A stretch of 64,000 bases of DNA from the NCBI RefSeq assembly GCF_045037415.1, contig NZ_CP173438.1; one strand, 5' to 3'. This document shows, in pieces, positions 30,701 through 33,700 of the stretch. Position numbers: made by a program. Numbering within the stretch: the first letter of the stretch is position 1; each line of letters begins with the position of its first letter. The stretch comes from Escherichia coli. Lineage in GTDB: Bacteria; Pseudomonadota; Gammaproteobacteria; Enterobacterales; Enterobacteriaceae.

Positions 30701-33700
30701 ATCCCAAGTGTAATCTGCGCAGGTCTGATCCTGCCGAAGTTCCTCGGCAATCTTGAGCGCCCAACGCCATCATTCCTGAAAGCAGATCAACCGGTAGATA
30801 TGAACAATCTGCCCTCTTTCGGCGTTTCGATTCTGGTGCCGCTGATCCCGGCGATCATTATGATCTCTACCACCATCGCCAATATCTGGCTGGTAAAAGA
30901 TACCCCTGCCTGGGAAGTGGTTAACTTTATCGGTTCCTCGCCGATTGCAATGTTTATTGCGATGGTGGTTGCATTCGTACTCTTTGGCACCGCACGTGGT
31001 CATGACATGCAGTGGGTGATGAACGCTTTTGAAAGTGCGGTGAAAAGCATTGCAATGGTGATTCTGATCATCGGTGCGGGTGGCGTGTTGAAGCAAACTA
31101 TCATCGACACCGGCATTGGCGACACCATCGGCATGTTGATGTCCCACGGCAATATCTCGCCCTACATTATGGCATGGCTGATCACTGTGCTAATTCGTCT
31201 GGCGACGGGTCAGGGTGTCGTTTCGGCGATGACCGCCGCCGGGATTATCAGTGCTGCAATCCTTGATCCAGCAACTGGTCAGCTGGTTGGCGTGAATCCG
31301 GCGCTGCTGGTACTGGCGACGGCTGCGGGTTCCAACACCCTCACCCACATTAACGATGCATCTTTCTGGTTGTTCAAAGGTTACTTTGACCTGTCAGTAA
31401 AAGACACGTTGAAAACCTGGGGTCTGCTGGAGCTGGTCAACTCCGTGGTTGGGCTGATTATTGTGTTGATTATCAGCATGGTAGCGTAAAAGAGCACCTG
31501 AGCCTGCCATTGGCAGGCTCTGTTCGGATTGTCGGCAAAGTGCACTTTGTTTATGCCAGATGCGACGCTGGCGCGTCTTATCTGGCCTACAAAGGGCTAA
31601 CGTGCAGTTTTTTAGCTTCAGGCAATATTGCGTACCTGCATTAGCAATGTTCTGTGATTTCTTTATTGATAAACAAAAGTCACGCCAATAATCGATTGCA
31701 CATTCCCTGCAGTCACCTGCCCTCCGGTACGTGCGTAATTTGCCGTTAATCCCAGACTTACCGCCGAAGTCCCTACTGCTCCTAACGATACCGTGTTATT
31801 CGCTGGAATAATCGTACCGTTGCGCGTCAACTGTACGCCGACGCCCTGCGCTGGTGAAAACGACGCGGTATTGGTGAAAATCGAGTTGCCCGCATCTGCG
31901 GTTGTGCCGGAGAGGTAATACCCCAGGTTTTGGCTTTTCGCACAATAAACGGTAAGAGGAATTGGCACTGAACCAGGGTAGTCCGGCAGAGTAACGGTGA
32001 CATCATGAGCAGAAACATCGCAGCCGCCAGTAGGCACCACCACATCATTATTGGCGTAAATATTCCACACAAACTGGAAATCATCGCTGTTATAGTTGTT
32101 GGTCTGTCGCAAAATAAGCACGGCAATTAATGAGCCAGCTTTAATCGCCACCCCACCCGCACTGCTCACAGGCGTCAAATAAAGCGCCACCGGCCACGGC
32201 TTATCCGTTCTCGAATTATAAACAACCCGCGGCGTTTCGCTGGTAGTCGGAAATGGATAGCTACTGCCACTATATTTTACGGTCCCGGAAAAATTAGATA
32301 ACACGCCGCCATAAGCCGAGCCTCGTTGCAGTGTGACATAGTCTGTAATGGTTTCCGGATAATCGTTATGGCAAAAGATTTGCGTCGAAAGATCTACGAC
32401 CAGGTTTTGCCCCACATTCACGGCAGGCGCAAGGTTTACATAAACATTAGCGCTGCCACCGCCAATAGGAATAGCGGTACCATTGGCGGTTTTACAGGCG
32501 AATGACCAGGCATTTACCGACCAGCCCATCAGCAGTACAGCAAACAGGGTAATAACTCGTTTCATGACAATTATCTCTTCGGGTTCAGCTGTAGGTATAG
32601 GTGATGCTAATCACTGCCTGAATGGTTCCCTGAGTGGCTCCGCCATTTACCGTCAATGCTCTGACCTGTAACGGGAAGTGCGCTGATTGTGAGGAATCAT
32701 CCACCTGAACTGTTTTGGTTGCGCCAGTATTCAATGTGTTGCCACTGTCATCCTGTAGCTCTAACTGGATGTTTTGCGCGGTCCCCTGGTTTTTATAATA
32801 TCCGGTACTGTCGGCTGCCCCGCTGAAGCTGGCAGTGACCCTCGACGTTCCCACCGGACAATTAGTCAACTCAAGCGCAACATCATGCCAGGCCGATGCC
32901 GCCCCGGCAGACATCAGACTGAAAGAATAAAGATCGCCGAGATCAAACGTGGCATTGGTGGTGGAAACCGTGCACGGTTTGGCGACGACCTTACCGTTCA
33001 CCGTGATGGTGACATCGGCTGCCTGTATCGTCGCACTTGCGAGCGCCAATATTGCCGCCAATAAATACCCACGTTTGCGCCATTTCATGAGCATCTCCAG
33101 TTACTGATATTCAAGAGTGAAGGTAGCCGTGGCATTGATATGCCCCGCAGTGACAGGCACCTGTGTCGCCATTAGCCGGGCGTAAAAATTCAGCGTATTT
33201 GGTTTACCCGGCGTCAGGGTCGTCCACGAAAGCGCGGACGATGGAGCATTAAGGGGTATTTGATTTTGCTGCTCATTCAGAAGCTGTATTCCCAGTCCCG
33301 AAGCCGCTGACACCGTATTTTCAAGTGCAAGCAGGTTGGCATTGTGGCTATCTGCAACACCGGTAAACCCAACTTTTACGGCAGAAACGGCATTACCACA
33401 GGGTGACAGCAAAATACGAAATGGAACGACAGGAGTCGTCGCGCCAATGTCGTTAAATTGCTTCGCCGCGTTTTCCATCAAATCAACAGTAAAATTGGTT
33501 GATTCAGCGGCCACACTACAGCCGTTATCTCTGACATAGCCGCGGATAGTAATCGTGCTATCCGCAGCCAAAACGCGACTTACCGCCAGCCACAAAAAAG
33601 CGCACAGAAGATAAAAAGGTTTGTTTCTCATCACGCCCCCTTAACGACATTCAGCTGATAGCTGGGTTAATAACTGCTGCTGACTCTCTGGTGGCAGTTG

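Follow-up and report, generated by a model that had tools for sequence, protein, structure and literature searches.

A fimH30 allele encoding Ala27 and His166 on an Escherichia coli chromosome segment most probably belonging to ST131 clade C

Which allele of the adhesin gene fimH is carried by an Escherichia coli chromosome whose FimH combines alanine at mature position 27 with histidine at mature position 166, which lineage does this allele point to, and do the two residues matter for the adhesin itself? These questions are raised by a stretch of 64,000 nucleotides (contig NZ_CP173438.1), referred to as the window throughout, in which a preliminary description had noted both residues in the open reading frame at 31663-32565. 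This open reading frame is very probably the fimH30 form of fimH, which encodes the D-mannose-specific tip adhesin of type 1 fimbriae, and the chromosome around it is very probably that of an E. coli of the H30 lineage (ST131 clade C). Both the fimH30 allele and the ST131 clade C lineage have already been thoroughly described, and nothing is added here to what is known of either. The window is, instead, an occasion to establish what the two residues indicate individually, how the allele is embedded in its regulatory and genomic context, and where the tract that contains it may have come from.

The gene is encoded on the minus strand, which the preliminary description had left unstated, and comprises the following features:

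31663..32565, minus strand: fimH coding sequence, fimH30 allele, 300 codons plus stop (ORF list, translation, Pfam, 903/903 identity)
32503..32565, minus strand: signal peptide of 21 codons, MKRVITLFAVLLMGWSVNAWS (mature start FACKTANG, from which solved mature FimH chains align)
32422..32424, minus strand: codon of mature Ala27, GCC (K-12: GTC, Val), in the context LAPAVNV
32029..32502, minus strand: lectin (mannose-binding) domain, approximately mature residues 1-158 (PF09160; pocket residues unchanged)
32005..32007, minus strand: codon of mature His166, CAT (K-12: CGT, Arg), in the context CDVSAHDVTV
31666..32025, minus strand: pilin domain, approximately mature residues 160-279, including His166 (PF00419)

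A lectin domain at the N-terminus and a pilin domain at the C-terminus are recovered both by full-length alignment to solved FimH chains and by Pfam, which assigns precursor residues 24-168 to FimH_man-bind (PF09160, 1.6e-73) and precursor residues 181-300 to Fimbrial (PF00419, 8.4e-08). Translation confirms the codons for Ala27 and His166 and, counting from the Phe residue of FACKTANG, places Asn at mature position 70 and Ser at position 78. Moreover, the residues of the mannose-binding pocket and the tyrosine gate (F1, I13, N46, D47, Y48, I52, D54, Q133, N135, Y137, D140, and F142) are all present and, by direct comparison, in the K-12 state, which agrees with the preliminary description in respect of N70, S78, and the unchanged pocket.

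Base-by-base comparison with fimH of K-12 MG1655 (NC_000913.3, b4320), a gene of equal length and 98.4% nucleotide identity, reveals 14 nucleotide differences, 12 of them synonymous, while the only amino acid changes are V27A (GTC>GCC) and R166H (CGT>CAT). Hence, N70, S78, and the pocket residues are common to both proteins, whereas K-12 FimH, whose protein sequence is identical in PDB entries 1KLF, 1QUN, and 4XOB, has Val27 and Arg166, in agreement with the preliminary description. The frequency of each residue in the species was determined from a set of 5,426 complete genomes of E. coli. Whole-gene megablast identity bands were too coarse for counting allele carriers and were replaced by 55-nt probes centred on each SNP, a design in which every 28-nt megablast seed spans the variant base. 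The His166 probe was found in 442 genomes and the Arg166 probe in 4,537, while Ala27 was found in 4,011 genomes and Val27 in 934. Few carriers are likely to have been missed, since the paired sums (4,979 and 4,945) are close to the 4,959 genomes in which fimH is covered to at least 80%. His166 is, then, a rare state found in ~8% of complete genomes. On these sequence counts, Ala27 is the common, ancestral-type state and Val27 of K-12 is the outlier at this position. The combination A27/R166 has been described as the low mono-mannose-binding consensus, with A27V occurring in MG1655 and R166H in H30 strains, and Val27 of K-12 as a derived state that raises mono-mannose binding about ten-fold, as reported (PMC5369007). 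Ala27 should therefore not be counted as a variant, since it is K-12 that departs from the rest of the species here. Of the pair that had been put forward as possibly informative, only residue 166 qualifies, since His166 is rare and Ala27 is the majority state of the species.

The allele itself can be recognized through well-characterized strains. Megablast aligns the window fimH without a single mismatch (903/903) to the annotated fimH genes of EC958 and JJ1886, reference strains of ST131 clade C, which also share with the window R166H, the fim operon, and the fimB::ISEc55 insertion, and it finds 100% identity to hundreds of database copies. The gene is likewise identical to fimH of ARM42, which was published as fimH30 and typed by its authors as O25b:H4-fimH30, clade C2. 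By proxy of its identity with EC958, JJ1886, and ARM42, the window fimH may in effect be typed as fimH30. The FimH30 variant found in ST131 clade C is defined by R166H (PMC9428848; PMC5369007) and, to this extent, the earlier view that His166 is characteristic of the fimH30 allele of ST131 is correct. However, the association is not exclusive, because Nissle 1917 and ATCC 25922 contain the identical gene (903/903, megablast). Moreover, fimH30 does not alone determine pathogenicity, since Nissle 1917, a probiotic strain, has the same allele.

Whether His166 affects the adhesin has been addressed in several published studies. Arg166 is a residue of the pilin domain that sits where this domain meets the lectin domain, and two interdomain hydrogen bonds of high occupancy are lost when R166H is simulated by molecular dynamics (PMC9428848). 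According to the mechanism proposed in the literature, the loss of these interdomain bonds would loosen the autoinhibitory clamp that the pilin domain exerts on the lectin domain, and the looser clamp would move the equilibrium from a low-affinity tense state to a high-affinity relaxed state. Favouring the relaxed state would, in turn, lead to the higher mono-mannose binding of FimH30. The published mechanism draws on isogenic phenotypes and molecular dynamics rather than on a solved structure of FimH30, and a search for His166 in solved full-length FimH returned Arg166 in all five best-matching distinct PDB sequences. In EC958, isogenic allele swaps associate the H30 allele with more adhesion, invasion, and biofilm formation (PMC9428848), and R166H variants show an M1/M3 ratio of about 0.33, as opposed to 0.08-0.09 for the A27/R166 consensus (PMC5369007). 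These phenotypes, together with the two hydrogen bonds lost in simulations, make it unlikely that His166 is a functionally neutral hitch-hiker, a marker of the clade and of its recombined fim tract that is irrelevant to fitness as far as adhesin behaviour is concerned, even though such neutrality would accord with the arrival of the allele inside a multi-kilobase recombinant block (comparison with SE15, below; PMC4850260), with its identical occurrence in the non-pathogenic Nissle 1917, with the success of clade C being mostly credited to fluoroquinolone resistance and other acquisitions (PMC4850260), and with reports of clade C being less virulent than clade B (PMC7671891). R166H represents a textbook case of allosteric tuning of an adhesin by a change outside its binding pocket.

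In the window, fimH is the last gene of fimAICDFGH and adjoins gntP, within the order fimB-fimE-fimS-fimA-I-C-D-F-G-H-gntP, which is collinear with K-12 and EC958. The features upstream of fimH are as follows:

32585..38258, minus strand: fimG, fimF, fimD, fimC, fimI, and fimA (100% identity to the annotated EC958 locus; ORFs)
37710-38258, minus strand: fimA (EC958 identity and annotation)
38377..38688, no strand assigned: fimS invertible promoter element with 9-bp inverted repeats TTGGGGCCA (inverted repeat search)
38737..39333, minus strand: fimE recombinase gene, intact (ORF; EC958 annotation)
39811..40218, minus strand: fimB 3' fragment, downstream of the insertion (K-12 fimB alignment ends at 40218; Phage_integrase domain; PGAP pseudogene in EC958)
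40219..42103, plus strand: ISL3-family insertion in fimB, ~1.9 kb (Pfam, alignment to K-12 fimB)
40318-40836, plus strand: DUF1706/ClbS-like passenger ORF of the ISL3 element
40855-42075, plus strand: transposase ORF of the ISL3 element
42104..42303, minus strand: fimB 5' fragment, first 200 nt (alignment and EC958 annotation)

The best sigma-70 match in fimS is TTGAGA-17-TATGAT on the plus strand (38642-38670), which we take to be the fimA promoter, and it points towards fimE and away from fimA. We read this as fimS having been assembled in the phase OFF orientation in the window. Beside the fimA-proximal inverted repeat of fimS, at 38385, an A-run differs in length by 1 nt from that of ARM42. 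As for the recombinase genes, fimE is intact, while fimB is interrupted after nucleotide 200, in the position also occupied in EC958, by an element with inverted ends GGGTCTTCCCC...GGGGAAGACCC that is flanked by duplicated ATATA. PGAP assigns this element to the 'ISEc53 family', and published work calls it ISEc55. The fimB-insertion configuration is common to about 406 complete genomes; it was described in EC958 and Nissle 1917 in 2011 (PMC3203889) and leads to slow OFF-to-ON switching (PMC3203889; PMC7671891). Expression of FimH30 would, in consequence, be set by the linked fimB::ISL3 insertion through slower OFF-to-ON switching.

Both fimH30 and ISEc55 in fimB are present in the window, a pair that is necessary but not sufficient for ST131 clade C and that is no proof of ST131, because the Nissle 1917 lineage has both. 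For this reason, fimB::ISL3 was dropped as a discriminator of clade C once the annotation of Nissle 1917, a strain referred to as a 'natural fimB null strain' (Stentebjerg-Olesen et al. 1999, as cited in PMC3203889), showed the same insertion at the same fimB position. The window might then be thought to derive from the Nissle 1917/ATCC 25922 lineage rather than from ST131, in which case His166 would mark that lineage. In addition to the identical fimH and the shared insertion, Nissle 1917 is 99.98% identical across the window, with 9 SNPs and one 3-bp indel over about 61.7 kb. Nissle 1917 represents another clonal lineage, of a different sequence type, and such an origin of the window is, nevertheless, very unlikely. 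The window shows 0 differences from EC958 over 37,422 + 3,481 bases (40.9 kb), interrupted only by a group II intron, while over the same 40.9 kb it is separated from Nissle 1917 by 6 SNPs and the 3-bp indel. At all of these sites, which separate EC958 from Nissle 1917 and lie within 11663-54836, the window has the EC958 state. They include the SNP at 40257, inside the insertion element, and the 3-bp indel at 42104, at the element's end, which correspond to the SNP in the insertion element and the 3-bp indel in the flanking direct repeat that were published as differences between EC958 and Nissle 1917 (Totsika et al. 2011, PMC3203889).

A further argument against the Nissle 1917 lineage, and for ST131, comes from the intron itself:

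49085-51355, plus strand: group II intron (ltrA reverse transcriptase/maturase), 2,271 bp, inside an ISEc52 copy (Rfam Intron_gpII 51269-51355)

The Rfam match ends exactly at 51355. Only one of the 5,426 complete genomes contains the intron at this place, namely ARM42 (NZ_OY019088.1), an O25b:H4-ST131 isolate from a urinary infection in Armenia, whereas EC958 and Nissle 1917 are devoid of it there. The unit formed by the intron inside ISEc52 is found at other sites in other genomes. Across the 64 kb, the window and ARM42 are distinguished by just three differences, namely two 1-nt indels (38385 and 50365) and one SNP at 16372, inside yjiM, where the window has G and ARM42 has A. At this yjiM position EC958 is like the window, and ARM42 has a private protein accession. 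In the window, a T at 50365 that ARM42 does not have splits ltrA into two ORFs (49741-50385 and 50357-51265), which reflects either a frameshift or an error of assembly. It is barely conceivable that both fimH residue differences are assembly or sequencing errors, as the two homopolymer-type single-base indels relative to the closest genome (38385 and 50365) might suggest, because both codon changes in fimH are substitutions rather than indels and the occurrence of His166 in 442 and of Ala27 in 4,011 independent complete genomes refutes it. Taken as a whole, the assignment of the window to ST131 clade C is well supported, although it depends on few discriminating sites, and the MLST, gyrA/parC, and O25b rfb loci are not part of these 64 kb.

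Where EC958 is identical to the window, its annotation marks several pseudogenes, including those at window ~25202-25952 and ~50385-50932. Among them are a frameshifted DUF2686 gene, yjiC, of which SE15 (clade A) has an intact copy, a frameshifted yjhQ (GNAT acetyltransferase) adjoining the topAI toxin gene, a truncated yjhR helicase gene, and a truncated sialate O-acetylesterase gene.

If the window belongs to ST131 clade C and its fim tract is almost the same as that of Nissle 1917, the history of this tract becomes a question in its own right. The window was compared with SE15, which belongs to ST131 clade A and contains fimH41. FimH of SE15 and FimH of the window share A27, N70, S78, and an intact pocket, whereas SE15 has Arg166 and Lys269 and an intact fimB. 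The two differences between the proteins, R166H and K269Q, match the published definitions of FimH30 and FimH41 (PMC9428848). At the nucleotide level, the relationship is that of a mosaic. Divergence from SE15 is 0.15% or less at 36615-64000 and at 18000-24000, while it reaches 1.2-2.2% in a block of ~12.6 kb at 24000-36614, which extends from uxuR through fimH into fimD/fimC, and 1.4-6% at 12989-18000. The portion at 1439-12988, which includes a type I restriction-modification cluster, finds no match in SE15. As judged from the annotation of identical ARM42 and Nissle 1917 sequence, ~1439-12988 contains genes for type I restriction-modification R, S, and M subunits, a further restriction endonuclease gene, symE, yjiS, yjiR, and an Rpn-family nuclease gene; SE15 has an IS1 copy at the corresponding place.

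Clade C is reported to have acquired fimH30 through recombination around 1980, at about the time of the ISEc55 insertion into fimB (PMC4850260). The mosaic relative to SE15 is consistent with this published import, in a comparison of three genomes that does not tell the recipient lineage apart. The contrast between the 9 SNPs and one 3-bp indel that separate the window from Nissle 1917 over ~61.7 kb and the 1.2-6% divergence of the blocks that differ from clade A suggests a large shared or recombined tract. The fimH30 allele was probably brought into ST131 clade C through homologous recombination, as part of a fim tract near-identical to that of the Nissle 1917/ATCC 25922 lineage. We consider it an evenly balanced proposition, drawn from genome comparison, that fimH30 was not born in ST131 and was imported within a large mosaic tract from a B2 donor similar to Nissle 1917 or ATCC 25922. 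This imported tract may have spanned at least positions 1-40218 of the window and would have brought in the type I restriction-modification cluster, the uxu genes, and the structural fim genes along with a fimB that ISEc55 had already disrupted. The individual pieces of this scenario, namely the import by recombination and the identical fimB insertion, are published, and a statement of the extent of the tract or of the donor lineage was not found in that literature.

The fimH30 allele is the standard subtyping marker of the pandemic multidrug-resistant ST131 clade C and, as such, places the window in a clinically important lineage. If the proposed import from a Nissle-like donor is true, the Nissle 1917 lineage and ST131 clade C would have in common, by recent descent, a module that joins the adhesin to its regulation.
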